DNA of 63,976 nt, the filler included, from Sanchytrium tribonematis (lineage: Eukaryota), in the NCBI GenBank assembly GCA_018985235.1. It is 8 parts of 8 records of this genome, joined end to end, with 100 filler letters (N's around TTAATTAATTAA, not from the genome) between each part and the next. Parts side by side here need not be neighbours in the genome. Positions count along the whole stretch, not along the records: positions 8,249 to 16,391 come from JADGIG010000390.1; positions 16,492 to 24,631 come from JADGIG010000391.1; positions 24,732 to 32,866 come from JADGIG010000392.1; positions 32,967 to 41,100 come from JADGIG010000393.1; positions 41,201 to 49,325 come from JADGIG010000394.1; positions 49,426 to 57,543 come from JADGIG010000395.1; positions 57,644 to 63,976 come from JADGIG010000533.1; 1 more part is not named here. One strand, written 5' to 3'. Both the position numbers and the translations under genes were made by a program. Positions 13,759 to 63,976 of the stretch are shown in pieces (the first letter of the stretch is position 1; the number at the start of each line of letters is the position of its first letter). The notes under the pieces were generated by a model, which saw only the letters and a program-made list of their open reading frames with translations, was not told where the DNA came from and did not search any database.

Positions 13759-15322
13759 ATGGTCCAATTTCTAATTTTATTGATGATGGCTACAGATTGT
13801 GATATGATGATGCTATTCTTTAGAGCATTGAATATGCATATCACAGACACGTCTAAATTTAATTTGATTCCTGTAAATTGCTGTAATTATAATGATAACT
13901 ACAAAATCACCATTACGTGTACATCCAATACCATCACTAGGCTATCGTTGAACTTTATTAATATAAATGGGACCATAGATGGTAGTTTGTTGCCTCCAAA
14001 TATCACATTTATTGAAATTCGATTTAATGCTAATTTAGCATCTCAGATTCCAAATAATCTACCCGATTCCCTGACATTTATAGATTTCATGGGAAATAAG
14101 TTATATGGTCCACTTCCCACTGTTTATCCGTCGAGTTTAGTGCAATTTAGAGCCAATTCAAATTATTTGACAGGTCCATTGCCACGGTTTCCAGATTGGA
14201 TTCAAAGCATGACACTAAGTTCCAATTTACTACATGGTGATATTGATCATTTGCCAAATAGTTTGACATTCTTTTCTGCAAATGGATGCAACTTCAATGG
14301 GTCGATTGTTTCACTCCCTCCGAATATCACATTTTTATCAGTTTCTTACAGCAAATTATCGGGCAATATCAAAACAATGCCAAGTAAAATCATCACTTAT
14401 GATGTCGGATTCAATTTAATGGGTAGAGATATCAATGTGAATCAGAATTGGCCAATTAGTCTAACTGAAGTTTATATTGGTGATAACTATTTTTATGGCA
14501 TCTTTCCAATCCAATTAATGAGTGCAAGACATCTCAGTATCAGCAACAATCGATTAACGGGTTGCTTTAATCAAACCTTACCATGTTTATCATGTTTGTT
14601 GGACAGAAATCAATTTAAAGGTCCCATCACGTTTAGTCAGCCTGGGGACATTTATTTACAAAATAATTCCATTACCAATGTGACTATTTTGGATGCTTCT
14701 TATTTAAATGACTGTATTTTAGATCATAATCCAATGTTGGGTAATTTAGGGCGTATTTTTGTATTTTATCGATATACTCCAATGCCGCCTACTTGTAGCA
14801 CAATCGGGCTATTTAATAGTACTGGATATCAATGTGATAATGTAAAATATACCACGTCAATCAAATTGTTGTCAAGCACGACCTCTTATTATACTTTTCA
14901 AGAAACAAAGGAAACAACTACAATTGAAGTTTCATCAATTCAAATTAGCGAATTGCAATCCACGACATCAAGTAAACAGTCAGTAGACTCATTCGATACA
15001 AGTCATACAACATCTAATTTGATTGATACTCAATTTACAACTAATGTCATTCAACGACGTATTTTTAATTTATTTAGGTCCTGTTTTCAGCACAAAAGTA
15101 AATGCTCCATACACAGACTCATCTATATTTCAATCAAGTACAGCCTTTACAGCCACAATGACATCACCTCAAAAAATGGTTAGTTTTGCTGTTAAATGGA
15201 ATGGAAAATTAAACACAATTCAAATCCAATCTGGTTGGGTTCAAATATGTAAGATTGCTATTAATTTTATATTTCTAGGCACATTATTAATGAAATTGAT
15301 TCTTAGAAATAAAAGAAAATAA
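13759..15322 (+). CDS. LRR surface protein (signal, CC cap, LRRs, Ser/Thr stalk, C-terminal TM); exons 13759-15058 and 15078-15322, 514 aa
   Basis: LPxxLTxL/NxLxGxLP repeats; the 19-nt intron joins the two ORFs in frame and adds a TM + basic tail. Confidence 0.85.
15059..15077 (+). other. 19-nt spliceosomal intron
   Basis: gtatttttaatttatttag, phase 1; restores ..IQRR-PVFSTK.. and the TM tail. Confidence 0.8.
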
Positions 15323-15567
15323 ATTTAATATATGCTTAATACATTGCTTGGGGTTAAATTGAACCTTTATCATGAATTAAACAAATTCAATCCATGACAT
15401 TGGTGACATGGCTTATTGCAATCAATTTCCAATATGATGGAATACAAATCGACAGTAAGCAGTTACTGACTCTGACTTGATTACAAATATTGAGACCCTT
15501 TTTGAAAGTCGTCAAATAATTCTTAAGGAGAATTGTTGTGTAATTTTACTAAACAGGATCAAACAAC

Positions 15568-16236
15568 ATGATTTTTTGGATGTTGCTAATTGCATTTCCA
15601 ACGGTTGATGACTGTAGTATTTGCTTCAATCCTATTAATGAAAATCAAAGAAGAACGGCTTGCTTATTTCATCCAGCACATTCATATTGTGGTAATTCTC
15701 ATAGTCATAGGTGTGCTTCGTGTGATGCTCCAAACGGATTGATGGAGGACGAATGGATCATTAAGCGCCCCTTTTATAGCTTTTTGTATCAGTTGAATGA
15801 TTTTAAGTTGAATGATGTCGAAAAGGATGGAAAAAAATATCAGGATGCACTAATTGCATTAATTGCTCAAGGGGCTGATATTTATCCCCAAAACGAAGAA
15901 AACCAGAATTATTTCAAAGATATTTGGCAAGAAATTGACCCAATTATTGTTGAACTTGGAATTCAACAGAACATCATTGAGAATGCAAGCCAAAATTTGA
16001 ATCTGAATGAAGTTAGTAATGCTATTAAAGCATACTACGAGTTTAACTCTATTGTGACATTTGAAGATGACGATGAAGGGTTGCAAGAGGCCAAGGAAAA
16101 AATTTTGATTCAACTCGGTGAAATTTGCGCAAGTCCGAATCCAGTCACATACTATCGAATTTATCAATCTATTGAAGATATCGTAAAGAGTATTCCCCAG
16201 GAAATTCTTGAGAAATTGCAAAATTGTAACAAATAA
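15568..16236 (+). CDS. Signal peptide + degenerate RING-like Zn finger protein
   Basis: MIFWMLLIAFP then CSIC..C..H..HSYC..CASC; acidic helical C-terminal region. Confidence 0.6.
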   Translation: MIFWMLLIAFPTVDDCSICFNPINENQRRTACLFHPAHSYCGNSHSHRCASCDAPNGLMEDEWIIKRPFYSFLYQLNDFKLNDVEKDGKKYQDALIALIAQGADIYPQNEENQNYFKDIWQEIDPIIVELGIQQNIIENASQNLNLNEVSNAIKAYYEFNSIVTFEDDDEGLQEAKEKILIQLGEICASPNPVTYYRIYQSIEDIVKSIPQEILEKLQNCNK

Positions 16237-16391
16237 TAAAATATTTTTTCGCCAATTTCCCCTGAAACCATGTCAAGAAGTACGAGAAATGAAAGAACTC
16301 AACCTGCTCAAGTTCATTTACAACCCTCATTTGCCAGACAAGTAGCCCCACCCCACTTCAATGCTGGATGGTATGAACATATGATATCCTC

Positions 16392-23214: not shown

Positions 23215-23271
23215 AAATACCGGCTCTCCCCCAAATAAATATCATCTTACACTTTAACATGGTAGCGAGCG
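23100..23271 (+). mobile_element. Probable 3' part of a 5' LTR plus primer-binding site (left boundary not resolved)
   Basis: Inverted CCAAT pair, CATAAATA, AATAAA, terminus ..TTTAACA (23259) directly followed by TGGTAGCG, complementary to a fungal initiator tRNA-Met 3' end. Confidence 0.55.
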
Positions 23272-24631
23272 AACAAAACAATCAACCAACAAACCAGGAA
23301 CAACAAATTGAATCTCCGATTCAACAAACACCTCATGGAACGAGAGGAGTATTGACATCTCAACCACCAACTCCAACCCCGCAGCACACTGTGGAAGAAC
23401 AACCAACATCAATGACCAACATGATCGAAGAATCCGAGGAAGAAAATTTACCGGAACTGAAATCCACCAAAGTGGATGTAGATCATTTTGATCCACATAA
23501 GGATGACGTGGATGATTGGTTGGACATGATGGAAGAATTTGGTTACGATTTAAAATGGAGTCCAACACGACTTTACAGAGAGACCAAATTACGATTGTCA
23601 TCAGGAGTTTTAAAGAAAGTCAAAAATGCTGAACGAAATTATGACAGCCTAAAAGCAGAATTATTGCTTGAATTTCGTGCACCTCGTAACGATTTGAAAT
23701 ACACAGCCGATTTCTTTTCAATGAAGCAGCGATTTAACCAATCAATTCGAAAATACAATCAAGCATTGATTGAAAAATACAAGAAATGTCACTTTGAAGA
23801 GGAGTACACTACTTCAAAGCTATTTATGCGAAAATTTTGTTCTTCGTTGAATTCAACACAAGTACGACAACAATTGCAGACAGAATACGCTCGACGACGA
23901 ATTCAAACTCATAGAGAAGCGTATGAGCTAGCAATTAATTTGGAAGCTGAATTAGGAAATCAAGACTCATTTGATCGAGAAAAAGGAAGACGTACATTCT
24001 CCAAGCCTAAGCCGAAATTTTCAAACTTTCCAAGCAAGTTTAAGAAATATGACCGATATAAGTCTGATCAACAGTTTCATGAACAAGAAAAGAAGCCTTA
24101 TTACAAAGGTAAATCTGCAAAAGGAAAACGACCTTTTAAAGGAAAATCTGGATTGAATCAAATAAACCAGGATGAATCCTACTCAAACATTCCTTCTTGT
24201 AAAGTCTTGGGTCGCATCTTCAATGACCTACATGAAATTTTAATTGATACTGGAGCTACACATAGTTTTATTGATCAAAGTCTAGTGAATAACTTGGGAC
24301 TAGCAATCAAACGATCTAGATTATCTAGCACTATATTAGCTGATAGAAGCACGCTAGATATATTAGGATTAGTTAGCATTCCAGTACAGTTTAGCAGCAC
24401 ACCTCACATATATTGCTTCAGGGTAGTGCCACAACTTGCTTGTGGAATTATCATTGGAAGAGATATGATGAAGGAACACAGTATCTCAGTGGACATGGCA
24501 CGTGCGATGGTATGGATAAAATCAACACCATTTAGGATGAAGAGATCCGCACAAGAAACTGCAATCCACACAAGCCTTCTGTTATATGCTACAGAGACAA
24601 ACCATCGAAAACCAGATTTTCGATATCAATG
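23259..24631 (+). mobile_element. Ty3/gypsy-like LTR retrotransposon gag + aspartic protease, cut by the contig end
   Basis: Capsid-like FDP..DVDDWL and MKQ..SIRKY motifs, basic NC-like region, retropepsin ILIDTGATHSFI..IIGRD; real start may be ATG 23412. Confidence 0.88.
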
Positions 24632-24731: not shown

Positions 24732-25879
24732 TTATGGTGTTGTGAGTTGCATGAGTCAGAATGTCACAAAGATCGAATTTTATAAAGGATATTTTAATTT
24801 GAACACGGTAGATGGATATGCTTTTAAAACAGAATATATTCCCCCTAGCTTGGAATCTTTGATTATTTACAGTGAATATAATCAATCTGCTAAAATTCCT
24901 GCTTTACCTGGTAATGCTAAATATTTTGAGCTGGGATACACAAGAATTAATGGAGATTTGCCAATATTTGAAGAAGGATTAGAAACCCTAAAATTGACAA
25001 ATTTGAAGATTGATGGGAGCTTGCCACCATTGCCAAGCACCTTAAAAACACTCATTGTCATTTATTGCGGACTAAAAGGTGTTTTACCACCATTGCCACC
25101 CAATTTGACAGAATTGCAAATTCAAGGCAATTATTTCATTGGCCCATTACCAACATTCCCTGACTCATTACAGACAATTGTATTGGGTGACAATGTACGA
25201 GAAGGTAATACTTTTAATGATAAATTATTTGTAAATCATCCTAAAACATTGATTTTAGGAAATACAAATATTTCAAGCATTGAAATCAAAAATACCACAC
25301 TTTTAACAAATTGTGATGTTTCTTATAATCCATTACTGAATAGTACATTTATTGGTAATTATACCATGTGCAAAAAGTATTATTTGACCCCAAAACCATT
25401 GCAATTGCAAATTGTTTTATCGAGTAGTTTGATTTCTACGACTATTTCAACTAGTTTTACAAGAGAAACAAGTGTGGAATCTACTGCAATAGTTGTGACA
25501 AGTAGTAAATCAGCAGATTCTACAGTCTCTGTACCAACAAACACAGCAGAATGGTCAGTTTTCAGCTCAGAATTGCAAAACGGTGCCCCATCCAGTAATT
25601 CGTATTTATTTAGTCATTACACGCATTCCATTTAAAAGAACCACATTGCTTTCATTCAATGAAACTACTGATAACTCATTTGCAACAAGCAGTATATTCA
25701 CGTTGGCGAATGTCGCAGGGACCACATCGACAAAATTTGGATTGCGCCCATTTCAATTGAACTGGACATGGCAGATGATTGTCAAATTAGCTGTGGATGG
25801 CTTATTTATTATGACATTATTTGCAAATCGGTTGGGGAGACAAAAGAAGAAAAAATTGAATCGTGTGTCCGCATATTAA
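24732..25879 (+). CDS. LRR surface protein, 5'-partial; exons ..25594 and 25614-25879; paralog of 13759-15322
   Basis: LPPLPxxLxxL repeats, CDVSYNPLL cap, Ser/Thr stalk, TM + basic tail after splicing. Confidence 0.82.
25595..25613 (+). other. 19-nt spliceosomal intron
   Basis: gtaattcgtatttatttag, phase 1; joins APS-I-ITRIPFK in frame. Confidence 0.8.
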
Positions 25880-29107: not shown

Positions 29108-29545
29108 ATGAGTCTACAGCTATCAGCATCATGTAAACTTGCATATACGGCATATACAGAATGTTACAAAAAAACGAATCCTATGAAAATGAGTACTAAA
29201 AATCCAGGAATACCCGCAAATTGTGAGTCTTGCAAAGATTTGTCAGACAAGATCTTAAGTTCATGTAATGAGGATGACTTGCAGACAACAGGAATCTGGG
29301 TAGCTGCTGCACAATGTCATCAAGAAGAGGGTAAATGGTGCATGTCATCACAACAAATGATGATAGATGTGAGTGGATGTCCTGATAAATGTGCGCAATT
29401 TATGGCAAAAATGAATCCTGCTATCAATAATCCAGAATGTGCTGCAAAATACAAACCAAGTTCTGGTTCAGATGGAAACACAAATTCATCTGGCAGTAGT
29501 ACTAGATTTACAGTGTTGACACTGTCTACTTTGTTGCTATTTTAA
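29108..29545 (+). CDS. Cys-rich protein with GPI-signal-like C-terminus (array member 1)
   Basis: C-x9-C, CxxC, C..CH.E.G..C, C.DKC pattern; Ser/Gly spacer + FTVLTLSTLLLF. Confidence 0.8.
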   Translation: MSLQLSASCKLAYTAYTECYKKTNPMKMSTKNPGIPANCESCKDLSDKILSSCNEDDLQTTGIWVAAAQCHQEEGKWCMSSQQMMIDVSGCPDKCAQFMAKMNPAINNPECAAKYKPSSGSDGNTNSSGSSTRFTVLTLSTLLLF

Positions 29546-29826
29546 ATTAAATAAATCGGATCTTTTTGCATCCAGCTTGCAGTTGACCAATTATTTATAA
29601 TTTTAAATACATATGAAAACAAATGCTACACTCTATATTGTCTATCTTATGGTGGTTCAAAAAAATCTAAAAGATCTTTTCTATTCGAAGTGACTTCAAA
29701 TCATTTTTATCCAAGCAGCGTGATTGCAATATAAATTCACGTTGTTTCGCATCTGTTTCTGTGATTGGGCTAATTGATATGAATTTAAATGACAAAAAGG
29801 ACACCGTGGTAGCAATCACATTCCAA

Positions 29827-30285
29827 ATGAATACCACATTATCAGTCACTTGTGAGAATGCATTTATGACTGCAAATAATTGCATCAACAAGCCTGAAAA
29901 TGCATTGGATATTTGCAACAAATGTGGGGATTTGACCGAATCATTATTTCCACAATGTAATGAATTAGATTTCAAGAATATGACATTATCAAATATTGCA
30001 ATGAAATGCCATGTTGAAAATGGACAAATATGTGCAAAATCAAAAGAGATATTGAATATTGTGGATTGTGCAGATGTGTGCACACAATTCTATGCTACAA
30101 TGGAATTGGTATCCACTAGTGAGGATGAGTTGAAGCAAATGGATTCCAAATTATTGCAGAATATTCAAAAATGTGCAGAGAATTACCCAAATGATTTACA
30201 AATTGGACGAAATGCAGGATCATTATCATCATTTGCAACTGCTTCATTTTCATTATTGACAGTATCTGCATCTCTCTTGTTGTGA
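29827..30285 (+). CDS. Cys-rich GPI-like protein (array member 2)
   Basis: Same Cys scaffold; ends FSLLTVSASLLL. Confidence 0.8.
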   Translation: MNTTLSVTCENAFMTANNCINKPENALDICNKCGDLTESLFPQCNELDFKNMTLSNIAMKCHVENGQICAKSKEILNIVDCADVCTQFYATMELVSTSEDELKQMDSKLLQNIQKCAENYPNDLQIGRNAGSLSSFATASFSLLTVSASLLL

Positions 30286-30506
30286 GTTAATAAACATACG
30301 AGTTTATTTCATTGCACTGTTTCATGCTCCATCATACAAATCATGCATGTTTTTCAGTCATTGTGTGCGCCTGATAATATATCACAAATATAAATACACC
30401 AATTAAATATCCAAATAAGATATCACGCAGATAATTTCAGAATCTGTGATTGGCTTTTTGAAATAACTTTTAATTTAAATAGAACATCCCCTGCATTATT
30501 TCAAAA

Positions 30507-30983: not shown

Positions 30984-31071
30984 TAAATTTATTAGGCAAG
31001 CTTGATCATTTTGCAAAAGTTCTGTGATTGGGTTGTTAATGTAGAAATACAAACACATCCAATTTCTAAAA

Positions 31072-32363: not shown

Positions 32364-32449
32364 ATAAATATTTGTATGATTTATTGGTTGTTAAATGATT
32401 TCACTTGCAGTTTACCCTTAGTTTCTGTGATTGGATACTAGATATACAA

Positions 32450-41343: not shown

Positions 41344-43120
41344 ATGAATTTCTTTGCAACGACTTACAAGAAGGATGACAGCATCCCGCTAACAGTCAAT
41401 GCAATTTCTAGCCGTAAGAATTTATTATCGTATGACTACTACGATTCAAGACTTCACCATTGTGAACCTGCAAACAAGCAACTACAGGAAGAAAATTTAG
41501 GTGCTATTCTTTTTGGAGACAGGATTTATAATTCCAATTTTAAAATCACTATGCTAAATTCTAAAGAATGTGAACTGCTTTGTGAAGAAACCATAGGAGC
41601 TGAGGATTTTGGTTTTGTAATGAATTTAATAGAGGGACAGTACACAAACAACTGGTATATTGACCAACTACCGGTGCGAATATCCGAAAAAGCGAATACA
41701 AACAAATTAGAATTTTTAATTGGCAAAAAAGAAAATGAAGATTCAGCCAAGTTATTTAACCATTTTAGTTTAAACATTCAATATGTAACTGCAAGCGATG
41801 GATATCAAATTGTTGGAGCTTTTGTTGATCCAAAATCGGTATATAATGATCAGCAAAATTGTGGATCAAAAAGAAATTTTCCAATTCGTATCTATCGTAA
41901 TCGTAAAACGTCATTTCATTATTCCTATTCCGTTAATTTCGAAGAACGAACAGATATTGACTGGAGTCATAGATGGGATCAGTACCATCAAGCTGATTCC
42001 CTAAGCAATGTGCATTGGTTTTCTTTGATTTTTTCTTGCATTATTGTTTTCTTTTTATTGATTTTCGTAGGCATGGTACTTATAAAAAGTTTGAGAAATG
42101 ATATTGCGAAATATAATAGATTGAACGATCTGTCTGAAGAAGAAAGTGGATGGAAAGTACTTCACACTGAAGTTTTTAGAAATCCCGAGAGTAAGTCACT
42201 ATTGGCAATTCTTATCGGAAATGGTATTCAGCTGGGATTGATGGTCGGAGTTACTCTGATTTTTGCTGTCTTTGGATTTCTATCACCTGAAAAGCGTGGA
42301 CAACTTTTCACAATTGCGATTATATTTTATTTGCTATTTTCCGTTGTAGCAGGCTATTTAAATTCAAGAATTTATAAAATGTTTGGTGGAAAAGAATGGA
42401 AGTCAAATGCGATTCTAGGAGCTTTATTAGTTCCAGGATCCTATTTTCTATCTGTGCTACTTTTGAATTTTTTCTTGATATCAGCGCATTCTTCAAGTGC
42501 TGTTCCATTTGGGGCCATTTTAACTTTGTTTACATTATGGATTTTTGTAAGCACCCCATTAAATTTCTTAGGCGTTTTTTTGGGATTAAGAAAAGAGCGT
42601 ATCCTTGCTCCTGTGAGAACAAATCAAATCCCTCGGCAAATTCCAAGAGCTTCTTGGAGCCTTCGCCAGGTTCCATCATTTTTAATTTCCGGAATACTTC
42701 CATTTGGTTGTATATCAATTGAAACATATTTTCTTTTGAAATCAATTTGGTCAAATGAAATATATTATGTATTTGGCTTTATATATGTTGTGTATATCAT
42801 TCTTTTGACAACAAGTTCACTTATTTCTCTTCTCATGTGTTATGTTCAACTTTGTAACGAAAACCACTCATGGCAATGGCGCTCGTTCTACATCGGAGGA
42901 TCGTCAAGTTTTTACTTAATGGTGTTTTCAATTATTTATTACATCAAATTTATAAAAGCCTCTTCTTTCAGTTCAGCTGTGCTTTATTTTGGCTGGTCTG
43001 TTCTAATTTCTTTAACTTTATTTTTGATTACGGGTACAGCTTATTTATGAAGGATCGTTTGCATATTTCTTTTGTTTGATTTTTGTACGGAAAATTTATT
43101 CATCAGTAAAAATAGATTAG
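41344..43120 (+). CDS. EMP70: TM9SF/Emp70 nonaspanin; exons 41344-43033 and 43053-43120, 585 aa
   Basis: ENLGAILFGDRI, VHWFS, EESGWK, PVRTNQIPRQIP; splicing restores the conserved ..FVRKIYSSVKID* end. Confidence 0.95.
43034..43052 (+). other. 19-nt spliceosomal intron
   Basis: gtacagcttatttatgaag; removal gives ITG-SFAYFFCLIFVRKIYSSVKID. Confidence 0.92.
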
Positions 43121-43123: not shown

Positions 43124-45974
43124 TTATTTCTTCCTTTTTTTCCGAGGTGCTTCTTCCTCGTCGCCGAGACGCATTCGTTTTCTATCGTCGTCTTCACGTG
43201 CCTTTTCTTCCAATTCATCCCAATCTAAGCCTTCTTCGCTGACTTCGCTTGCACTGACATCACTCTCTTGGGCACTGACATCACTTTCATAGCTCTCGCT
43301 ACTTTCAACTTCCTCCTCTTCGTCAGACAAGTCCTGCGCGTTTTCAAATTCGCTTCCACTTTCACTGGAATCCCCACCAGCATCACTTTGTTCTTGTAAA
43401 AATTCCCAACCACCATCTTCGAAAAATCCTTGTGGGCTTTCTCGGACAGTTTTCATAATTGCGGTCCAATTTAAAGATACAGGGCCCTCGGTAAAAGCTA
43501 TATTACAAGTGCTAAATAAATAAAAAGTACTCTAGCCACTCTCTAACCATTTCTAATTCAGTAGTAGGAATTGCTGTAATCTGAGTTATAGGCAGTGTGA
43601 AATCACGATAAATTATAACCATATCAAAATTTTTAAGGCCAAATTGAACTCTTTCCAAATGGACGACTTCGATCTCACGAATAGGAACTACTAAAAATGG
43701 AGGGTCTGTGAGATGTACTAAAAAATCACTAGTAGGTTGCATCAGAACAGAAGTTCGAAATGGTACACCTGTAAAGCCAAGTTCCCTAAAAGGGACGTCA
43801 ATTTCGACCGTATTTCCGCTCAATTCAACAATCTTTTCTCCAAATTGTTTGAACTCTCGATTGAGCTTGGCCTTTCTTCTCTTTTCCTCCTGCTCTTCTT
43901 CAAATTCATCATCAGCATACATTCCTCTTCTTCTTAATTGTGTTTCATCGTTCCCTTCACTTGTTTCTCTATAGAATTGAACATTCCTAGTTTTTTTCTT
44001 ATTAATCATAATGTGATCTTTGAGATAACAATGTAAAATAACGTAATTCTCATTATCACAAGGTTGAAAGAACATTACTTCAATATTACTAAACAGAATA
44101 TCTACCTTTGAGTTATTAAGCTCGCTTTTATATCGTAGTCCGTTGCTATGAATTTCCAGAGGCGACGAGACCTGCTTTCCCTCAGGTTTAGGTCTACATA
44201 GTACATCGCGTAGTCCCAAAGGTCTTCTACCCTTAACCTCAATTAATTTATCTTGTTCCACCAAATTGGCTTTGTCTTTCTGTTCAGCTTCTTTTTTTGA
44301 GACATTCCGTTTCAAATCAGTTATTTCCTTATAGATAGAATTAAATCGAACAGCATCTGAAGATCGGAAGGTCAAGGATCGCACAAATGTTGCACTGGAA
44401 TCTTCGTACGGAACCTCGTCTTTCTTTGAAACCTGGCCAGGTGTGATAAAATTTAAACGCAAATAAACATAGTCACTCTCTTCATTTTTTGAAATATTCT
44501 TTAATGTAGTTATGTGAAATGGTACGACTGTTCCACAAATTGGCAATAAAATGCTCTCGTTTCTAGTATCCACCATAATTTTCATTTTTATAGTCTCTCG
44601 TGGAAGCTGGTAGTCTCTTTTGTAGCTGTCAAATTTTTTCACGGCAGGCTGGTCGTTTTCTTGATCACCCGTAGCATCTCCTTTTCTGTGTCTTTTGAGA
44701 CCACGCTCTTGGACTTCAGCATAAAGTTGCTTTTGATGTATTCGGCGTTCTTGCTGTTTGCTTAGATCATCTTCCTGAACTCCACCATGGCGGGTTCTCT
44801 TGCGAGTGCCATTCATATTTCCAAAATCTAGATCCTTTTTGGTCATTTCTAGAGTCATGAACGACAGATCATATGGTAAATTGGTAAGCCTGCGCGATGA
44901 GGATGTCTCCACCACAATCGTGTCAGCCAGATATAAACTGTATGTCATATCTTTATCTCTTAAATTATTTAAACCCATAGTTAAGGTGAAAACCATGCCA
45001 GCTTCAATTTCTGCCTCACAATCACTTTTGAATTGATAATTTTTGTCCCTAAATTCTATGCCAAGCATAAATCCCAGACTTTTCAGAATGTGTGTTTCTA
45101 AGTTTTCATGTTTTTGACGGATGTATGCAACAAATTTTGTATAGATAGAACTACAGATGGCTCCTGGAACGATATTACTGAGCGCATACTCAAAAAGTTC
45201 GACCAAAATTCCATACATTTGAGTCTGTTGTTGTGTAGGTGCAGGAAGAAACGTTCTAGCTATGTTTGTGCAATAAGCCTGGTTACGGATTCCTAATTGC
45301 AGTACTACCGGGTATTCTTGATCCAAAAAGGATGAATTACTGACAGCAGAAGGTTTCAAATTGTATTCAGAAGTTTGGACAATAGGCAAGTAACAAAATT
45401 CTGAATCGGGAAATTGCTTTTCAATTAGTCTAGCTAATTGCATATGAGTGATTTTTCGCTTCAAATCTCCAAGAACATTTTTTGCTAACTTTATAGCATC
45501 GTCGACATCACTGCAGGCCTTGGCAATGTATCCGATCTCATCGTTTGTTTTAATGCTCAGATATTTGGATACAAAATCTTGCAAATCTTGAGAGTCTTTT
45601 CTCTGCAACCAGCTCTGAACTTTTTGAACAACAGTGTCGTCACTAGATTCACTCAGCACTCCGATTGTAGAAGGCAAATTTGCCAAATATTCGTCAATAT
45701 TTGAATAATCCTTTTCACGAGTTACGCATGAACCGAATGGTTCTAAAAGCTTACATTTTTTCGAAGATGCGTAAACCCTGAATTCAGTTTGAGAAACAAA
45801 CATCAAAGTATCCGGAAATTCATATTGCAACAACTTGACTTGTAAGGCTGATGTCTTTTGGTATGCAGCTTGAGACTTTCCATGTACAATAAGAATGTTG
45901 GGCATGCCATTATTTTTCAAGGCATCTTGCAAGTCTTTGAGCTCTTTGTGCACATGAGTCGCAGATATTGACAT
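43124..45974 (-). CDS. SPT16: FACT complex subunit Spt16; exons 45974-43531 and 43511-43124, 943 aa
   Basis: [30 protein letters not shown]; splicing restores [33 protein letters not shown] and the acidic tail. Confidence 0.96.
43512..43530 (-). other. 19-nt spliceosomal intron
   Basis: gtactttttatttatttag, phase 2 (GA|C = Asp). Confidence 0.93.
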
Positions 45975-46445: not shown

Positions 46446-47292
46446 ATGACAAATCATTATGAACTATTTAAGAAACTTGGTGATTTAGACAGAAAAACTG
46501 TACCAACTATTGCCCCACAACACAAGGACAAAAATCGCTATTCCGACGTCCTACCTTACGATTTTAATCTAATTCAAGATATTCCATTTTATTTCAATGC
46601 CAGTATTATGAAAATTAGCGGCTTAAATACGGGATTTATTGCCACCCAAGGACCCATACCAAATACTTTTTCTGATTTTTGGAAAGTTTTGCATATTAAA
46701 GATATCAAAACTATTGTGATGCTAGTTGACGCGACACCTTTAGAAAGTCATAAAGTAGGAAATTGTCATGTCTATTGGCCAGAACAAGAACCATTTATAT
46801 CTGACAATGTAAATGTTCGTTTATTATCCAAATATATCTTATCTGAAAATTCTACAATTAAAAACAAATGTGATAATGTTATTGTGCGGACTTTTGAAAT
46901 TGATTATGATAACACAAAAAAAGTTGTTGAGCAGTTTCATTATCAGAATTGGGTTGACCGAAGCATTGTCGATAAATTGGAATTATTTCAATTTGTGAAA
47001 TTTTTTAATGAGTATATGGTTTTAAATAAAATGACCACTGATCCAATTGTACACTGTAGTGCTGGATGTGGGAGAACTGGAGTTTTCATTAACATTTACA
47101 CCGCCTACCTTCGCCTTCTTTCAAAATCTAGTAATATTGAAATTTTAACAAGCGATATCATAGAGTTCAGAAGTCAAAGAAGATATTTTGTTCAAACATT
47201 GGTATTATCAACTAATTAAGAAGCAACTAGACTTTATTTACGACATTTATTTGGAAATGGATAAAATGTTGAATGGCCAAGGAGAAAACTAA
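46446..47292 (+). CDS. Classical protein tyrosine phosphatase; exons 46446-47201 and 47221-47292, 275 aa
   Basis: [31 protein letters not shown] loop reads WVD; splicing restores Q-loop VQTLKQLDFIY. Confidence 0.92.
47202..47220 (+). other. 19-nt spliceosomal intron
   Basis: gtattatcaactaattaag with CTAAT branch motif; phase 0. Confidence 0.92.
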
Positions 47293-53600: not shown

Positions 53601-55579
53601 TCATCTATAATTCCCATTCATAAAGGAAAATCCGATGATTATGAGTCCATGACTGAGTATCGTCCAATTGGACTTTGCTCGATTCTCCGCAAGATGTTTG
53701 AAAAATTATTTAAACCCCGCTTGATGCCATTTTTACAGACTGGGGAGAATCAGTTTGGGTTCAAGCATGCAACCAGTTTATTAGATGCTGCTTGGTACTT
53801 TGAGTCCAAATTAATTGAGCTACAATACAATATAGACGATTATATAATGGTAAAAGGTGATTTAAAAGCAGCATTTGATTCTTGTTCTCATGAATCTTTG
53901 TTAGAAATGTGTAGAGCAGTAGAAATGCCTGAAAACTTTATATCATTAATTATCAATTTGAATCTACGTCAAAATATTAAGCTGACACTTGGAGATCAAT
54001 GCAGCAACTATAAAAGCATAAATCAAGGGGTTATTCAGGGAACAATTCTTAGTCCCAACCTGTTTACCAAATTGGTGGATTGGATAATGAATAATTTCAG
54101 TTTAATCTCAATCTGGTTCGCTGATGACTTACTGTTTATCGTTAGAAGGAGTGAATATGAAGCAAAAATGGCTGAATTAGTAGAATCCCTTGCTAAAATT
54201 GGTTTGAAATTTAACATGGCAAAAACTCACCCAATAACACAAGTATTTGAAAAATGGATAGGTTTGGAACTCAACCATTTGGGTACCAACACAGAACAAC
54301 AGATTAAAGCCAATTTAAAGAAAGCAAGAAATAGAATTCGTAATGCTCGTAATTCTGGTGTTTTTAATGGCGGCTATAAAAAAGAGCATTTATTACGATA
54401 TATTGGATCAGCAGTACTGCCCTTACTAGAGATGGGATTAGCTATTCATGAACCAATTTCAGATTTAGCTGCTAAGGTGGATGTATTCATAAATACAACA
54501 GTGCGAGATTTGGTTGGTATCCCGATTCATACGCCTGTAGATGATATTCGGTTTTTGACTGGTTATTGCTCATTTATGGATAGATGGACATCAATTAAAG
54601 TAAAATTTATAAACAAATTGAACTATCTGAGTGGATCTATGGATGATTTAGAGTATAGACCCAAAGCAAAGATGAGTTTTAGTCTTAATAAGAAACTCAA
54701 GAAATATATTAAAACCAACTCATCGATATTAAGAGTCTTCAAGAGATCTTATCCAAATGCTGTAGTGAATTGCAACAATTGTTCAAATAACCATGATTAT
54801 GCCAATCAAGTATACAAATGTCATAACTCGTTGATTTCCCAGCCAACAGCGAAATGCAATCGATTTGAGGGTAAAACAATTCTCTCCTTTCCAAATCAAT
54901 GGAAATCCATTATACAACAAAAACAAAGTACTTTACAAGATGAAGAATTACTCATAGTTACTGACGCCAGTTTACATGAAAATCCAGAGATTCAATCAAC
55001 AGGAGCCGCAGTTGTTTTATCCAAATCCAATATCCACATAAAAGCATACAATCTTAACACTTTACGGCCAGATGATAGTACACGTTGCGAAATAGCAGCT
55101 ATTGTTTGTATTTTAAAAGACATTAGCAAACTGCAACAGTATCAGAATTATACTATTCACCTACTTTGCGACAATACGAGTGCAATTAAATTGTGTGAGA
55201 AAGTACGTGATAAGACAGTCCCATTTTATAATATTTATTCGATAGATTTGATTAAAGAAGTACTAGACCAGTTAAATCGTGTAACATTTGAATATTTACC
55301 TGGACATGATGATGAGAATCCAGATTCTTTAAATCATCTTTGTGACTATTTTACACATGCTCATGACATAGCATCACAACCACCAATAGAATTACGAATC
55401 AACGATAAATGGAAACAAACAGCAGCACCATCAAAAGAGGTCTTTAGACTAGCTCATGTGGTATCTTCACATACAAATGAGAATGTGTTATTAGAGATCT
55501 TCAGAGAAATACATAGCAATTGTATCCCAGCGACTTAGTAGCCGTCATTTACAAGAGTAAAACCTCAATAAATAATTAA
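50648..55579 (+). mobile_element. Full-length single-ORF non-LTR retrotransposon
   Basis: Flanked by a 14-bp TSD; 25-nt 5' UTR; ~41-nt 3' UTR ending aataaataattaa. Confidence 0.92.
50673..55538 (+). CDS. LINE polyprotein: N-terminal region, APE endonuclease, reverse transcriptase, Cys/His motif, RNase H
   Basis: APE: GWNICG, LSECK, GDIN, SDHKA; RT: ASGPDDVP, YRPIGL, QFGFK, DLKAAFD, GVIQGTILSP, FADD; RNase H: VTDAS, CEIAA, LCDN, LPGH..N..CD. Confidence 0.95.
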   Translation: MSSSKNVIKKPPGPLQPANLAEMVDPKQLQWLCCLKVQSTMYRTTMSGLPDTNHMRRQLLKKAKIKSENVRRFEFIHNCRYLEVICTQRVLEKILEYLKIELGGTPIQMGSWIKFIKSPGNKSLFKNEILRLKEDMFDVSLSIFSETRYENDVTKLLGILCGQFDTKFNYKVHMKRVKTQIEEEMVKKVPIKKPQCTITSDADDDEMLALMTDLNSHSVANKHKADKMDEDLESLDLNTTPPGTHNDKKRKLTDDSQVLISFNLTKNGHLNYETCVEQSTIYDICETFDYTYLIYNLKNTKDLQQEVIGGSSITITTCDLIHTIKVSLFEVNYDLFVPSGTLAGHIIPPLYCDTEKYSIKIDNLPMTENDMLLDDLKSVTISLVNSIQTYLCEKSLFLYNNEFKLHQEIQCFKYFDKCLSIVLNNIQIFIYFIFWCHLLPTNAFKVQFGGQSIILDEPVHLVQDIAISLSARGIAAGNIIYNGDQLPMGETITPEHSGSVYYKLKTPNELTTVTTKNRSLRILGWNICGIKHNVNDLLAIIQAFDLDLLFLSECKVAHDFKLPTNFIYYNKSNSPYGCAVVYNSERYSSGDINIIGSEYHLLLKLESVDILYVYRKLSTNCVEWYHSIRPMISNQVFLFGDINVNTLLPLNVNQLTMFDLMAMDGLFHFDIVSDYSFLRNGAIGYPDLAFYKTQTSYKVISGEFMDRFDISDHKAMIFELELDTENVVIFPKMPRWNVKKLKDEQVDFIFKHEEDLEIIKDQQVIEQYLLEFDNDNVPGHQRYSACTSLGDKLVTILHKSANHAIGKSKLFHGIDTQVLQDATTARLRGNHDIANRIIDLSRRLAIKKYKQKVDDLDSCQFLKVVNLASRRKGVSKQHLNRLRLEHHFAQWDGKWDMKALNHDVFIPVKQTNSIWSDYTFHEFNTIIKNLPGHKASGPDDVPNELLKHSNDRFKMVLLRFFNIIGKTGIVPDIFRFSSIIPIHKGKSDDYESMTEYRPIGLCSILRKMFEKLFKPRLMPFLQTGENQFGFKHATSLLDAAWYFESKLIELQYNIDDYIMVKGDLKAAFDSCSHESLLEMCRAVEMPENFISLIINLNLRQNIKLTLGDQCSNYKSINQGVIQGTILSPNLFTKLVDWIMNNFSLISIWFADDLLFIVRRSEYEAKMAELVESLAKIGLKFNMAKTHPITQVFEKWIGLELNHLGTNTEQQIKANLKKARNRIRNARNSGVFNGGYKKEHLLRYIGSAVLPLLEMGLAIHEPISDLAAKVDVFINTTVRDLVGIPIHTPVDDIRFLTGYCSFMDRWTSIKVKFINKLNYLSGSMDDLEYRPKAKMSFSLNKKLKKYIKTNSSILRVFKRSYPNAVVNCNNCSNNHDYANQVYKCHNSLISQPTAKCNRFEGKTILSFPNQWKSIIQQKQSTLQDEELLIVTDASLHENPEIQSTGAAVVLSKSNIHIKAYNLNTLRPDDSTRCEIAAIVCILKDISKLQQYQNYTIHLLCDNTSAIKLCEKVRDKTVPFYNIYSIDLIKEVLDQLNRVTFEYLPGHDDENPDSLNHLCDYFTHAHDIASQPPIELRINDKWKQTAAPSKEVFRLAHVVSSHTNENVLLEIFREIHSNCIPAT

Positions 55580-57644: not shown

Positions 57645-60600
57645 ATTGCAGACAAGTATAGCGACGAGCAACTCGACATATTATTAGGTGAAATGGTCCA
57701 ATCGCAAAGCCTTCCTAAAGATACCATCGACAGACTACGGGACCTTCCGAGAGATTCTAAGCTGACTTTGTTAAATAAGCATTTGAGTGATAAAGATTCA
57801 ATCATGGACACGCCTGATCAATACATACAGGCCGTACTCCGTAAGCCACTGAAAGAAATTGGCAAATTGAGAGTTGCATTAAATACCAAGCCTGTGTCAT
57901 TTGTTGTTGAATTTGCGAACAAAAATGGACTGTCAGTCATTAAAGATATTTTGTGGGATTCTATCACATATTTTGTGCTAGAAGCCGATTATTATAGCAG
58001 AACAAAAGACGATCATCCATTTTTAGTTTATAAGTCCAAAGTATCGAGGGAGCATTGTGATAAGCTTTCTTACGAAGCCTCTCAATGCGTCAAGCCTTTG
58101 ATAAAGTTGCAGGATATCTTAAAAATGATTTTGACGGACGACAACATTTTAACATTATTATGTTTGTATACCAGTTTCGGAAGTTATCTAACTCGAAAAA
58201 TCGCTTGCGAAACACTAACAATTATTATTTACTACGACGGTACACTGGTTGGCAAGATTTTGCAATCATTTTCCAATGCGATTGAAATTCAGTGCTCGTT
58301 GTTGAGACAACATTTTCGACACCCAGGAGAAAATCAAGCCAATGTATACAATGTCTTAAAAGAAAATAAGATGTCCAATAGCCCATTTGAGCTATGGATT
58401 GGATCTTTGGATAGCGTTTTATTGGGACGAGGAATTTTAGGTAGTAAAGTTCAAAGCAACTTGCTCGACAATATGACCGATGACCAATTAAATGATTTCA
58501 CTCTTTCTAATTGGATATTGATAAATGGGCTTTTGAGAGTGCCCGTTTCTATACCATTGAAAATACATATACGTAATCTATTTATTCATGCTAATTTAAT
58601 CAAAATTATTGACCAATCCAATAATATGAATAACGAATTAATAGGTTGGCAACTTAAACAATACAGGGAGGATTCCAAACTAGACCAAAAGTGGTTTGAT
58701 GATACCAATCGTTTAAAAATGGAAGATTTCTCGGATCCATCAGAATGTTTAGATTTTCTGTTACGTCAAACTGAAAAATATCCATCCGCTTATTTTTGGC
58801 TGACAAGAATAATGCAGACTCTGACACTCATTCGGGATGATGAAGGAAATAGCTTCGATGTCAGGCACAGTTATTTGAAGTTGATCGCAAATATTGTCGA
58901 GAAAATTGTACTAGATGGGCACGGAATTGACCCTTCATTCACAGATTTGTACGGAATATCGGTATCATCAATAATAGAAGGACTCGCAAACCAGGAACAG
59001 TTGGATAATTTGAAAAGCGATTTAAAAGATTCAGAAATTAAGTTAACCTTACTTAAAAAGGAAAAAGCTAAAACTGAAGTTCGCTTATCATTATCAGATG
59101 AAAACACTAAAGCACAGTATTTGCAAACAATTGATCACCTTAAGGACCTTTTAAACATCTCGCAATCGAACTCAGAAGCACTCAAGGATCAACTTAAGGA
59201 ACAAGATGAAAAATACAGATCAGTTCTAAAAAATCACGATCATCACTTGGAGAAACTTTTAAAGGCTTTAAAAGAAACTAATGATTTAAAGCAACTCGAT
59301 CAAATGAATGAAATGCTCGACAACGATTTTAAAAACCATTTTCCTGCAAGGGAAATAATAAGCAACCCTAATGAACAATTCGAATCGTTGAAAAGTGAAA
59401 ACGCCCGTTTAAGAGATCAATTGAAAATACTTAAGCATAGACAAAATGCGATCGCACCATTATCTTTGCAAGAACGGCCAGAACAACCAGCAAATGATTC
59501 TGAAGAAAGAAATATCATGCAACAACGCGGTCTGACAGTAAAGGTTCAGCCGCTTTCAAAAACAGAAGAGAAAATTATAGAGAAAAAAGAATCCGAAAAA
59601 TCATTGCCACCTCCACCATCTGCAGTGGGTCTCCCGCCACCACCACCACCTCCTCCTCAACAGAGTACCTATGTTAAACGATTTAGACCAAAAACTCAGC
59701 TTAGGCAGCTCAATTGGGAAAAAATTCCTGAGCATGCAGCTAGAGAGACAATATTCTCTGTCTTGTCCGTAGATGATGCTTCAAATAATTTAGAAGATAA
59801 ACTAGATAAAGAAAATGTTTTCCAAAGTTTGGAAGCCATGTTTGGCGTGAAAGCTTCACCTATTTCGCGAGAACATAGTGACTCTAATGTCAGTGAGGGA
59901 AGTGGAGACAAATTGTTTGTTATCTCGGTCTCAATGAATGAAACTGAATTTAAACCTGGACAAGAGATAAGCATGCTAGATCCGAAAAAGGCTTATAATG
60001 TTAATATCATGTTGCAAAGGATAAGGAATATAACTGCATTCGAAATCAAACAAGCTGTTATTGAAATTAATAAGGACATTTTGAGCCCATTACTCATTCA
60101 ACAGCTTAACAAGTTTATGCCTACACCGAAAGAAATAGGGAAATTACAAGCTTTTAAACATAACAGAAAAAATTTAAGTAAGGCGGACAATTTTTTCATT
60201 GAAATGTTAACAATTCCTAGATTTCAAAAAAGACTAGAGCTTATTGAGTTTAGTTATCTATATCAAGAAAGAGTATCAGATGTTGAAAAGTTTATAAATG
60301 TACTAAATAATGGCTGCTTGGAACTAAAAAATTCGTCGGCATTCCGAAAAGTGTTGGAAATGGTTTTGGCATTAGGAAATTTCATGAACTCTGGTTTTAG
60401 AGGAGGGGCTATAGGATTTAAGATTACAAGCATCAATAAGCTCTCGGATACCAAATCATACGACAATTCCACCACATTGCTTCATTTTTTGGCCAAAATA
60501 ATTAGACAAAAATTTCCCGAGGCGCTTAGTTTCATTAAGGAATTCAACATGGTCAACGATGCCTGCAGGATAGATCTCAATCATAGCAAGCAAGAATTAA

Positions 60601-61056
60601 TTGGATTAAAAAAAGGTCTAGAGGATGTGAATGACGAAATAGATATATTGTCTCTGGAAAGTGAGTTTGATGTCTTTAAGAAGAAAATGAGCGAATTTTA
60701 CGATATTACTTTTGTACAAGTCAACACTTTGAATGAAAAATTTAGAGCTGCTGAAAAATTATTTAAGGAAACCTGCAAATTGTATGGAGAAAATCCGGCC
60801 AAAATCAGTTGCGAAGAATTTTTTGGAATTTTTAGCACTTTCAAAGTGTCTTTTGAAGTACAATCTATTTATTTAGCGTGCAATACAAGATATAGAACTG
60901 GAGGAAGCCCCTGTGCCAATTGCAAAACCGCTAGTATTCCAAAAAAGTGTTTCATCTAATCCCATAGAACCAAATACTGACACCGCAGAAATAGATTTGC
61001 TGCTCGAATCATTAAAAAAAGGACACGCTGTATTGAAAAAAGATATGAAAAAATAA
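57645..61056 (+). CDS. Diaphanous-related formin (GBD/FH3, coiled coil, short FH1, FH2, DAD); probably 5'-partial; exons ..60857 and 60877-61056
   Basis: LRVALNTKPVSFV, poly-Pro, LRQLNWEKI, LGNFMN..GFKITSINKL; splicing restores the DAD motif IDLLLESLKKG. Confidence 0.93.
60858..60876 (+). other. 19-nt spliceosomal intron
   Basis: gtacaatctatttatttag, phase 0; FE-RAIQD.. Confidence 0.9.
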
Positions 61057-61058
61057 AT

Positions 61059-61860
61059 TTATACTTTTTGTAAATTGAGTTCCCTGGAAGTGACAAGCCG
61101 TGCGTCAACTTCTTTAAAATCAACATCATCATCTTGAAATCGAAGTTTATAGGCGTTTCGTTTATAACCAGATGGAGGCAAGATAACTTGAGCTTTATAC
61201 AACTACATAAGAATGAATTACCGATGTCGTGTCAGGATATACAGCATAAACAATCCTGCCAGTCTCCATTTCGGGCCACTTCAATGGGTAGTCTAAATCA
61301 TCTGGGCGTAATACATCTAGATCGTTTGCCTCATTTGGAAGCTGCAATATTTCTGAAGCTTTTAGATCCGTCAATAAAGAGCCTTCTGAATCATAATCTC
61401 TAATATTATATCGAAGATCCGCGGACAGCTCAGTCATATTCGCAACGTGAACTTTATCGACATAACCTAATATCCATAGATCAGAATTTCGAACAGCTAC
61501 CAGATCATTTAGCTTGATACTTTTGTGAACATTGCAGTAGATGGGGCCAGATTTGATTGGCAAATCGAGTTTCGCCTTTTTTGATGGTTTGGTAGCCAAT
61601 TTAGATGCGTCATGTCTCGGTTTTTTATTTGTGGTAGCAACAACCTTAGTGGACAGCCTGCGCTTTGGTTTACTGGTTAGACTTATAAGCACGCTGTCAT
61701 TCAAAATGTTGTCGCCTCGAAATCTTGCGTCATATTCAATGAGTTGTATAGTTCGTTGTATTAATTCGCCTAGTTTATACAAGTCTTCAGAGTCATTTGT
61801 AGCTCTACACTCAATATTATATGCTTCCAAATCTTGCAATCGTTTGATCAAAGACTGCAT
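61059..61860 (-). CDS. SGF29: SAGA subunit Sgf29-like tandem Tudor protein; exons 61860-61222 and 61202-61059, 260 aa
   Basis: VAVR..WILG, YNIRD; spliced VYAVYPDTTS-LYKAQV..YKLRFQDD matches second Tudor. Confidence 0.82.
61203..61221 (-). other. 19-nt spliceosomal intron
   Basis: gtaattcattcttatgtag, phase 0. Confidence 0.9.
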
Positions 61861-61907
61861 GGACAAAACAAGGGGCAAATTTGATCAGTCATTAAAAATT
61901 GAAGAGT

Positions 61908-63976
61908 TTATTTGCCGTAAATTTTGTCAAATCTTGTTACCATTCTCTCAACCAGCAAAATCTGATAACTGCTGTGCATAGCAGTTTCCATGGTTTCTTG
62001 TTCTGGTCTTAAAATATTAGGCCCAATTACAATTCCGAAATTATTTGCATCCATCTTAGTTGCCTCTTTGTAAACACTCATTTTTTGAATATGGATTGAC
62101 AAAACTCTTAACGTCTCTTTGTTTGCAGCTGGCAACTTACTTATAGCGTCCTTCAAATCTTTATCAAAGACTGAATCATCTGTTCCTTCTAAATCAGAAT
62201 AAATGTACTAAGAATGTTGATAAATTTGTTATATTCGCTAAAAGGTATCAACGGGTTTGGTAATTGTCTCAAGAAAAGCTTTATAATTCCAGTGACATTA
62301 TTTACATCTGCAAATAATGAATTTGAAAATTCAGGGAAAAAGTCTGGACTGTCTTCCAACAACTGCTTAATTTTTTTGATCTCATCACTGTTTCCAGATA
62401 AACGATAAATTCCAACAACATCTTTACCTTTTTGTTCCACTAAGGCGAATCCCTTTTCTAAGAGCAAGGGAATTTTACGATTTTTTTTTGTAGTGACATT
62501 TTCCAGAGGAACGCCAAATACAACAGGATCTTTTTCAATTACCATGGTAGCACGTTTAGCGGCTGGCATACTTGCCAATTCTTCTTCTCTTCGCTTTCTT
62601 TCATCTTCGATTCTTTTCTCCTCATCTTCTCTGGCTTTTTTCTCTTCTTCTTCTTTTTTAACAACTGCAAATAGCGAAGATTGTGCCCCTCCAGTTGGAC
62701 CTTGCTTCTTTTCTTTTTTGGGGAAAAATTGTGACATTTCATTTGGAGGTACGCTATCAGTATACTTGGTAGCATTCTTTTGAAGAGCCTCAAATAAGGG
62801 GGCAAATTGATCGGCTTTTTCTACATTCAAATAAATTTGAAAGCCTACATCAGAATATACGGTGATGACTTCTGATCCCAGTTTTGTATTCTTTTTTTGC
62901 ACATAGCCACCTCTAATATCTAAGATTCCAAGAACCTTTGGTGCTTTTTTCTTTGTAGGTTGTTCTGGAAAGAAAAATAAAAAACCCTCAGACATTTGAA
63001 TAAAATATGTACTCCATTTTAAAGCTTTTAATTGAGTGCCGTCGGCTAAACCCCTAGTGATTTTATACACTGTTCCCTCAAAATCTATCCCCCATTGTGA
63101 AATAACCTCGTATTTGAAGGAATCGAGATTATCCAAAAATTTATGAAAAGTTTCGTGTTCTTGTATTATTTTGCCGTTTTCGTCTTCCAACTGGACTTCA
63201 TTTGGATCGATCGCTTGAACTTTTTTGCCCATACCCATGAATCCTTTAGACTTTTTTTCAGTTGTTGTTTTGATATCAGGAAGATCCACAACAGGGCTGA
63301 CTGCTGGAGCATTGGATAAACCGGTCGGCAAAACAAGTTTAGTATTTAACTGCATTCTAACACTTCCTACGTCCCCAGGGATTTTCTTTTGTAATGCTTC
63401 TAGTTCCGTGTCTTTAGTTGATGATGTGTCAGAATTTTGTCCGGCTTGTGTCGAAGAAGCCGCAAAAGTTTTTGGTCTTTCTCCTACTGGAGAGGCATTT
63501 GGCAAAACAATTCGGTTCTGCATATTTTTTATATTGCTAGTAGGCTCGACCTTGGGTTTTTCAAGAACAGGTGCGCTTTGACTTTCTTGCAATCTTTTCT
63601 GCATTTCCTTGATGCTATTTTTCTTCGGTTCTTCCGCTGGTTTTATTTCTAAGTTGGTTGAAATCGGTACTGGATTCTGAATAGTTTCTTTTACTTCTAA
63701 CTGTACCACACTAACAGATTTAATAGATTCTTTTAAATCATTAGTAAGGGGAACTGTGGATATATGTACATGTTCTTGTACCTCTACGTTTTCTTTTGCA
63801 GATTTTACACTGCTATGACTTATGGATTTTTTCAAATCTAAATCTTTGTTAGAGTGAGCCGAATTGATACTTGACGAACTCGGTGCCTTATTTAATTTGT
63901 CAGAACTAACGATAGGAATACTATCAACGACGATCTGAACCTGGTTTTCGACAACAGCAATTGCTTCTGTTTCCAA
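61908..63976 (-). CDS. PH + RhoGAP domain protein, 5'-partial; exons ..62209 and 62188-61908
   Basis: VFGVPLE, GIYRLSG (Arg finger), IKLFLRQLPNPL; second exon KMDANNFGIVIGPNILR. Confidence 0.92.
62189..62208 (-). other. 20-nt spliceosomal intron
   Basis: gtacatttattctgatttag with CTGAT branch motif; phase 1 (A|AA = Lys). Confidence 0.9.

Follow-up and report, generated by a model that had tools for sequence, protein, structure and literature searches.

The 63,976-nucleotide stretch of DNA analyzed here, referred to as the window and recorded under Sanchytrium tribonematis (GCA_018985235.1), includes eight genes that are each interrupted by a single GT..AG insert, seven of them 19 nt and one 20 nt long. 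As judged from sequence comparison, these inserts are with high probability ancestral U2-type introns that shrank to a length floor, and they are predicted substrates of a conventional spliceosome. The window consists of eight contigs of 6.3-8.1 kb each with N-spacers between them, has a G+C content of about 34%, and is densely coding: 51 non-overlapping open reading frames (ORFs) of at least 100 amino acids take up about 80% of its bases.

Eight short inserts near the 3′ ends of genes

Removal of the insert lengthens the ORF in all eight genes (Table 1). The coordinates, lengths and GT..AG ends given in the original prediction were all found as claimed, except that the inserts are located on four contigs (2, 4, 6 and 8) and not on five. 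In EMP70, SPT16, the protein-tyrosine phosphatase (PTP) gene and RhoGAP, an in-frame stop codon is found inside the insert or at its end. Once spliced, the convergent pairs EMP70/SPT16 and formin/SGF29 abut (stops at 43120/43124 and 61056/61059), matching the rest of this dense genome.

The inserts are found at 0.76-0.96 of the coding length, 68-388 nt ahead of the end of the stop codon. All eight are therefore in the last quarter of the coding sequence, the reverse of the usual 5′ bias and a feature that the original prediction did not include. The probability of this terminal clustering under a uniform model is about 1e-5, with a threshold chosen post hoc.

Table 1. The eight interrupted genes of the window. 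Lengths are in nt; the last column gives the residues that follow the site when the insert is retained and when it is spliced.
Gene	Predicted intron	Strand	Length	Phase	Exon 1	Exon 2	Retained/spliced
FNIP/LRR-repeat gene 1	15059..15077	+	19	1	13759-15058	15078-15322	41/81
FNIP/LRR-repeat gene 2	25595..25613	+	19	1	24751-25594	25614-25879	13/88
EMP70/TM9SF	43034..43052	+	19	1 (within Gly codon)	41344-43033	43053-43120	5/22
SPT16	43512..43530	-	19	2	45974-43531	43511-43124	6/129
Protein-tyrosine phosphatase (PTP)	47202..47220	+	19	0	46446-47201	47221-47292	5/23
Diaphanous-type formin	60858..60876	+	19	0	57693-60857	60877-61056	33/59
SGF29	61203..61221	-	19	0	61860-61222	61202-61059	8/47
RhoGAP	62189..62208	-	20	1	63976-62209 (open at window end)	62188-61908	6/93

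Protein comparison defines the length of the inserts

To measure the insert lengths, every stretch of 1-90 nt starting no more than 45 nt from the site was deleted in turn, a total of 8,100 trials with no GT-AG rule imposed, and the products were scored with hidden Markov models of homologues. For SPT16 (12 homologues) the best length was 19 nt and the insert of Table 1 ranked first of the 8,100, with 293 bits versus 167 when retained. The best length was also 19 nt for EMP70 (111 of 118 homologues used), where the insert ranked 10 (177 versus 150 bits) and the next GT/GC-AG candidate was found only at rank 569. For RhoGAP (117 of 148 homologues used) it was 20 nt; the insert ranked 5 (205 versus 135 bits) and a non-canonical 14-nt deletion scored level with it. 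In all three genes the insert was the best GT/GC-AG candidate.

Domain matches continue across several of the sites. The RhoGAP Pfam profile is matched at positions 1-84 before the insert and 94-147 after it, starting at residue 9 of exon 2, and that of SGF29 at 16-95 before and 92-129 after, although SGF29 exon 2 by itself matches SGF29_Tudor below the curated cut-off (E 0.0018). The SPT16_C domain is located in SPT16 exon 2. In PTP, the exon 1 match to Y_phosphatase breaks off at profile position 222 of 234, exactly at the insert site; a Pfam search of the second exons of PTP and formin gave no match in either. A homologue search with SGF29 returned the window's own protein as sole match, and searches of PDB sequences with both SGF29 exons were uninformative. 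The claim that removal of the inserts restores C-terminal motifs thus holds for Spt16, EMP70 and RhoGAP by the deletion tests and for SGF29 by the continuity of its Pfam profile. For PTP and formin it depends on motif labels that have no Pfam support, namely an exon 2 segment that we take to be the Q-loop and another that we assume to be DAD-like.

The two remaining genes encode FNIP repeats. Exon 2 of FNIP gene 1 contributes a hydrophobic segment and a basic tail, and the maximum hydropathy of the last 90 amino acids is 1.95 in the spliced form versus 0.27 in the retained one. FNIP gene 2 is a distant paralogue with the same layout (paralogue alignment E 6e-11).

A common 3′ motif and the class of the inserts

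All eight inserts have the structure GTA...YTNAT-NN-AG, with A at +3 and, upstream of the AG, a CTRAY-type box that on sequence grounds resembles a branch point (Y at -9, T at -8, A at -6 and T at -5, in eight of eight). The four invariant letters (A+3, T-8, A-6, T-5) are present in only three of the 576 other 19- or 20-nt GT..AG stretches of the window. Because these positions were picked after all eight inserts had been seen, the fair test is given by leave-one-out scoring and by the ranks of the FNIP inserts, which were out of sample. When scored by leave-one-out, each insert was equalled by zero to two of the 576 stretches. A matrix made from the six protein-defined inserts was used to scan 13,278 GT..AG stretches of 14-60 nt with the position in the gene left free, and it ranked the insert of FNIP gene 2 fifth and that of FNIP gene 1 eleventh; both are in frame behind long ORFs. 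The PTP insert has the weakest motif score of the eight, and an alternative acceptor 3 nt downstream, giving a 22-nt insert, is likewise open. A histogram of lengths at a fixed motif (seven matches at 19 nt versus 0.78 expected) is circular and was excluded as evidence.

The U12-type, or minor, introns are characterized by a RTATCCTT 5′ site and a CCTTAAC branch box. Position counts across the inserts show neither signal and this class was rejected. Assignment to the U2-type, or major, class is supported by the GT-AG ends, the branch-like box and the EMP70 position described below.

An ancestral intron site in EMP70

The best 80 of 499 EMP70-like metagenome loci, with 34-46% identity, were examined, none of which is near enough to belong to a sanchytrid. 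A phase-1 GT-AG intron is found in 26 of the 80 within the same Gly codon that holds the window insert. Twenty-five of these introns are distinct, with lengths of 32-124 nt (median 58), and nearly all have a CTRAY box. The site is uninterrupted in 40 loci, many of them on short contigs that are possibly transcripts, and 14 could be assigned neither way. In one of the loci (L071, G+C content 0.59) the intron at this site is just 32 nt long. The presence of conventional introns in the same codon in 26 of 80 loci indicates that at least the EMP70 insert is an old intron that has since shrunk.

The organism, its relatives and their annotation

The source organism is a sanchytrid (Sanchytriomycota), as its Spt16 and RPL27 proteins group with those of Amoeboradix gromovi. 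Spt16 from the window is 77% identical to the A. gromovi protein in EukProt and 73-77% identical to two ENA clusters, while every other match is at most 42% identical. In the tree these four group at 100/100 on a long branch that is adjacent to sequences from chytrids, and the RPL27 proteins of the window and A. gromovi fall in one 90% cluster. Sanchytrids are described as reduced parasites of algae and sister to Blastocladiomycota (PMC8371127).

The interruptions are shared by relatives. The related Spt16 proteins P0002, P0003 (A. gromovi) and P0018 end at the codon of the window insert; a further sequence, P0004, represents a smaller part of the P0018 cluster. For P0002 and P0003, the tails read through the site fit only a 20-nt GT-AG intron, with five of five next residues matching, or a 26-nt one, with one of three, and both tails permit an A at -6. 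The EMP70 relative P0021 (55% identity) and the RhoGAP relatives P0149 (65%) and P0150 (60%) also break at the codon of the corresponding insert. The P0150 tail is as long as that of the window; in our reading, a TAG stop would make it compatible with an intron of 20 nt that carries the 3′ motif of the inserts. A position that is kept while the sequence changes and the length shifts by one base is the behavior of an intron, and argues against assembly error and frameshifting. No locus came up when metagenomes were scanned with the alignment of sanchytrid Spt16 proteins. P0002 and P0021 are both on contigs with a longest length of 57,795, which suggests that the EMP70-SPT16 neighborhood is conserved in that relative.

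DNA contigs from run X1 span the EMP70, SPT16, PTP, formin, SGF29 and RhoGAP inserts free of gaps at a depth of 32-201. Among 47011-47608, 58166-58307 and 63725-63929, X1 includes in places two haplotypes at unequal depth, and also one contig end that jumps 596 nt over the 3′ end of PTP, a weak observation because one side has only 30 letters.

EukProt carries the read-through, truncated forms of Spt16, EMP70, SGF29, PTP and FNIP gene 1, as well as a truncated A. gromovi Spt16. In an exact look-up of ten sequences, three (formin, FNIP gene 2 and the Spt16 exon 2 ORF) had no match. The warning that gene predictors would truncate these proteins is therefore borne out for five of them. Both published sanchytrid proteomes were predicted by TransDecoder from genomic contigs (PMC8371127), and the truncations in the public predictions result from unrecognized 19-20-nt inserts that are very likely introns.

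The published eggNOG table of A. gromovi lists Prp8, SF3B1, U2AF35, LUC7, U2AF65, U1-70K, an SF1-type KH protein, DBR1 and UPF1, and nothing in these data shows an altered spliceosome. An Rfam search of the 64-kb window gave no match.

Length distribution and intron density

The claim of a near-fixed length of 19 nt is correct for the window, where all eight sites are 19 or 20 nt, although the basis for extending it consists of these eight sites plus about three 20-nt readings in relatives. We expect the genome-wide mode of intron length to be 19-20 nt, and consider a genome-wide 3′ excess of introns probable, with somewhat less assurance. About a dozen conserved genes, among them RPL23 and RPL27, each consist of one uninterrupted ORF; the latter two are typical carriers of 5′ introns in reduced fungi. 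These two genes (6071-7039) are divergent neighbors about 140 nt apart, both intronless. The top 40 of the position-free matrix scan held no other gene-repairing match, either 5′ or mid-gene, and a scan with relaxed ends (GT/GC..NG, 15-24 nt) gave no convincing further site among the candidates listed. A codon-model scan covering introns of 10-150 nt lacked power, missing most known sites. A scan at 21-400 nt amounts to noise: 342 of the 1,844 joins tested lengthened an ORF, and these were distributed over almost all ORFs.

An 18-nt, in-frame, stop-free GT..AG stretch at 10502-10519 (minus strand) has a yeast-like 5′ end, the same branch-like 3′ motif and a relative position of about 0.64. It is included in a 568-amino acid ORF that has no Pfam match, and may represent an intron of 3n length or ordinary coding sequence.

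With about eight introns in 51 ORFs, the window has an intron density of about 0.16 per kb of coding DNA. Since the density described for Allomyces is 1.30 (PMC8476143), most introns appear to have been lost in the sanchytrid lineage.

Possible mechanism of shrinkage and retention

If the A at -6 is the branch point, splicing would generate a 14-nt lariat loop and a 5-nt tail. The 7 nt around this A could represent a fungal TACTAAC box shifted toward T, with U2 pairing possible through G-U wobbles. Counting 6 nt for the 5′ site, 2 nt for a linker and 7 nt for the branch stretch, followed by NNAG, would then give a total of about 19 nt. This sum suggests a floor imposed by non-overlapping U6 and U2 pairing; on this geometric argument, deletion would halt where the two paired regions begin to overlap.

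The lineage would have shed most of its introns while the terminal ones survived. That loss mediated by complementary DNA (cDNA) spared the final 70-390 coding bases is the likeliest of the explanations considered, at about even odds. The window encodes a reverse transcriptase of the long interspersed nuclear element (LINE) type, evidence that this genome is able to produce cDNA. Less probable is selection that favors a terminal intron through a link to 3′-end processing, and selection for regulated retention is less probable again. A broader proposal, which we consider improbable, is that essentially all surviving introns of Sanchytriomycota are 19-20-nt last introns recognized by their length and by coupling to 3′-end processing, and that their retention switches C-terminal modules (formin autoinhibition, a membrane anchor) between life stages.

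The LINE-type retrotransposon (50670-55538, plus strand) consists of a 1,622-amino acid ORF with endonuclease and RVT_1 domains and looks intact.

Alternative explanations

Several points weigh against the interpretation of the inserts as shrunken ancestral U2 introns. Splicing itself is deduced from DNA and protein comparison. A motif-blind count of ORF-lengthening GT..AG stretches gave a modest excess, 12 at 19 nt versus 2-9 at other 3n+1 lengths, and the motif was derived from 3′ introns. The shared ancestral position was examined for EMP70 alone, in 80 metagenome loci that look fungal. The intron lengths of the relatives were decoded from proteins and not from DNA, and X1 may be the source sample of the window itself. 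The spliceosome proteins come from automatic annotation of A. gromovi only, and among the rows listed in that eggNOG table KOG2560, presumably Slu7, has no match. Finally, eight of eight inserts at 19-20 nt in 64 kb still allow up to 31% of introns to have other lengths, and longer introns in unconserved genes are compatible with the data, as the two long-intron scans do not discriminate.

These last points lead to an alternative in which the introns are real and the sample is biased: 19-20 nt would be just the short mode of a wider range of lengths, and the clustering at 3′ ends would reflect which introns are easily noticed. The small sample and its upper bound of 31%, the room for long introns left by the codon-model and 21-400-nt scans, the 18-nt candidate at 0.64 and the short mode with long tail of myxobolid introns (PMC13644364) are all in its favor. 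We nevertheless consider it rather unlikely, given that the position-free scan of 13,278 stretches found no further gene-repairing match in its top 40, that about a dozen conserved genes are intact, and that the sites that can be decoded in relatives give 20 nt. Poor or conditional splicing, similar to that of Encephalitozoon, with retention as a switch that drops C-terminal modules, is compatible with shrunken ancestral introns. All eight retained forms stop 5-41 residues past the site, each without a discrete module such as the formin DAD-like motif, the FNIP membrane anchor, the EMP70 tail or the Spt16 acidic tail. For 30 of the 37 E. cuniculi introns, fewer than 50% of transcripts are reported as spliced (PMC3629993, PMC6349667, PMC2483917), and Mikrocytos mackini introns were spliced at 63% and 37% (PMC10245619). 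Retention would, however, sever RhoGAP, SGF29 and PTP within a domain, which looks like loss of function, the read-through tails vary between relatives, and nucleomorph introns of 18-21 nt are spliced efficiently (PMC6009652); such a switch is doubtful.

The other explanations are much less probable. Programmed ribosomal frameshifting or stop read-through could join the frames, and the inserts are indeed T-rich and frame-shifting, but the alignments require removal of exactly 19 or 20 bases with zero added residues, opposite shifts would be needed at the Spt16 site, where the insert has 19 nt in the window but 20 nt in two relatives, four inserts have in-frame stops inside or at the end, and the EMP70 site holds a conventional intron in other loci; we give this explanation almost no weight. 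Errors of assembly or amplification, or pseudogene lesions, deserve mention as the published sanchytrid genomes were made by whole-genome amplification (PMC8371127). They are hardly credible in view of the same breaks in six relatives with 55-77% identity (three for Spt16, one for EMP70 and two for RhoGAP), the gap-free X1 contigs over six inserts (depth 32-201), the motif common to the inserts and the open second exons. Recent gain by an introner-like element could explain the uniform lengths and similar 3′ ends. It is very unlikely because the 5′ halves of the inserts differ, 26 loci carry conventional introns at the EMP70 site, and positions are kept across relatives whose insert sequences differ.

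Comparison with known systems of tiny introns

The original prediction gave intron sizes for Stentor (15-16 nt), nucleomorphs (18-21 nt) and microsporidia (low 20s); the literature consulted gives 15-16, 18-21 and, for Encephalitozoon, 22 nt upwards. The introns of Stentor and other heterotrichs are U2-type, 15-16 nt long, with a 10-nt loop and a 5-nt tail (PMC9505925, PMC13685798). They share with the inserts a near-fixed length, the GTA start, a branch A six bases from the 3′ end, the 5-nt tail and the U2 type, but they are multiples of three and 5′-biased, whereas the inserts, in a fungus, are 19-20 nt long (3n+1 or 3n+2) with a predicted 14-nt loop. The heterotrich Fabrea salina, whose introns are extremely 3′-enriched (PMC9505925, PMC13685798), is the one precedent found for the position bias of the sanchytrid inserts. 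Mikrocytos mackini has 224 introns of 16-17 nt (PMC10245619) and resembles the sanchytrid in that the genome is that of a parasite and reduced, while its introns number no more than a few hundred, come in two adjacent lengths, are conserved in sequence and interrupt housekeeping genes. It differs in being a rhizarian with shorter introns and a spliceosome down to 17-19 proteins, whereas the A. gromovi annotation retains U1-70K, LUC7, U2AF and DBR1. Chlorarachniophyte nucleomorph introns are similarly 18-21 nt, AU-rich and GT-AG, but there are about three per gene with no discernible branch A (PMC6009652); the window, which comes from a main nucleus, has about eight in its 51 ORFs, and the A at -6 is invariant.

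Among opisthokonts, Encephalitozoon cuniculi is also an intron-poor holomycotan parasite with a strict branch motif near the AG. Its introns are 22-76 nt long with the branch motif CTAAYTT (PMC3629993, PMC6349667, PMC2483917); it differs in this greater length, in the 5′ bias of the first-described set in ribosomal-protein genes (RPL23 and RPL27 are intact here) and in being a separate lineage. Myxobolids and dicyemids are likewise opisthokont parasites with a 5′ signal cut to GTa and common 20-nt introns (25% quantile, Q25, of 20 in Myxobolus rasmusseni), but they are animals with about 30,000 introns, medians of 22-27 with long tails in the case of myxobolids, and a weakly conserved branch A at variable distance (PMC13644364). 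Yarrowia lipolytica, an intron-poor fungus, has the same fixed succession of branch box, 2 nt and AG, but differs in its long introns (median 204), in which the ACTAAC box is strong (PMC2483917).

The system of the window would work like those of mikrocytids and heterotrichs without common descent. Descent from a heterotrich, mikrocytid or nucleomorph lineage was rejected, as Spt16 groups 100/100 with A. gromovi inside a clade with chytrid sequences. The proposal of an independent minimal-intron origin in an opisthokont is supported by the protein repair, the branch-like motif, the relatives, the ancestral site and the spliceosome genes of the sister genus. Its claim to novelty has to be narrowed, as 20-nt introns are already known in M. 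rasmusseni (Q25 of 20, median 22; PMC13644364); it applies to Fungi and not to opisthokonts. A literature search, with subscription journals and bioRxiv supplements outside its scope, retrieved no description of spliceosomal introns in sanchytrids. In the main text of the sanchytrid genome paper "intron" occurs once, in a reference title, and "splic" is absent, although the supplements could mention them (PMC8371127); the sanchytrid TPPP paper, in the part consulted, includes nothing relevant to introns.

Other features of the window

In the convergent pairs EMP70/SPT16 and formin/SGF29 both partners have an intron and the stops are 2-3 nt apart; their 3′ untranslated regions probably extend, in antisense, over the last exon and intron of the partner. 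An ORF at 23217-24631 (plus strand) that ends at the contig edge includes a retroviral-type aspartyl protease domain and is similar to the gag-protease of long terminal repeat retrotransposons. Six short Cys-rich ORFs in tandem (29108-32761, plus strand) have similar Ser-rich hydrophobic C-termini and no Pfam match, resembling in sequence glycosylphosphatidylinositol-anchored surface proteins.

Implications

If the inserts are introns as proposed, theirs would be the shortest typical intron length found in print for Fungi, in which Encephalitozoon starts at 22 nt. They would represent a further independent arrival at near-minimal introns, a size that several lineages, two of them opisthokont, have already come near. 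Because relatives carry ordinary introns at the same site, each intron in turn can be followed as it shrank. The layout of 5′ site, short linker, branch box and NNAG offers a testable account of a 19-nt floor as opposed to the 15-16 nt of ciliates, and the 3′ clustering goes against the standard reverse-transcription model of intron loss. If about eight of every 51 genes are truncated as in the window, claims of domain loss and gene content in sanchytrids, made from TransDecoder proteomes, would need to be re-checked.

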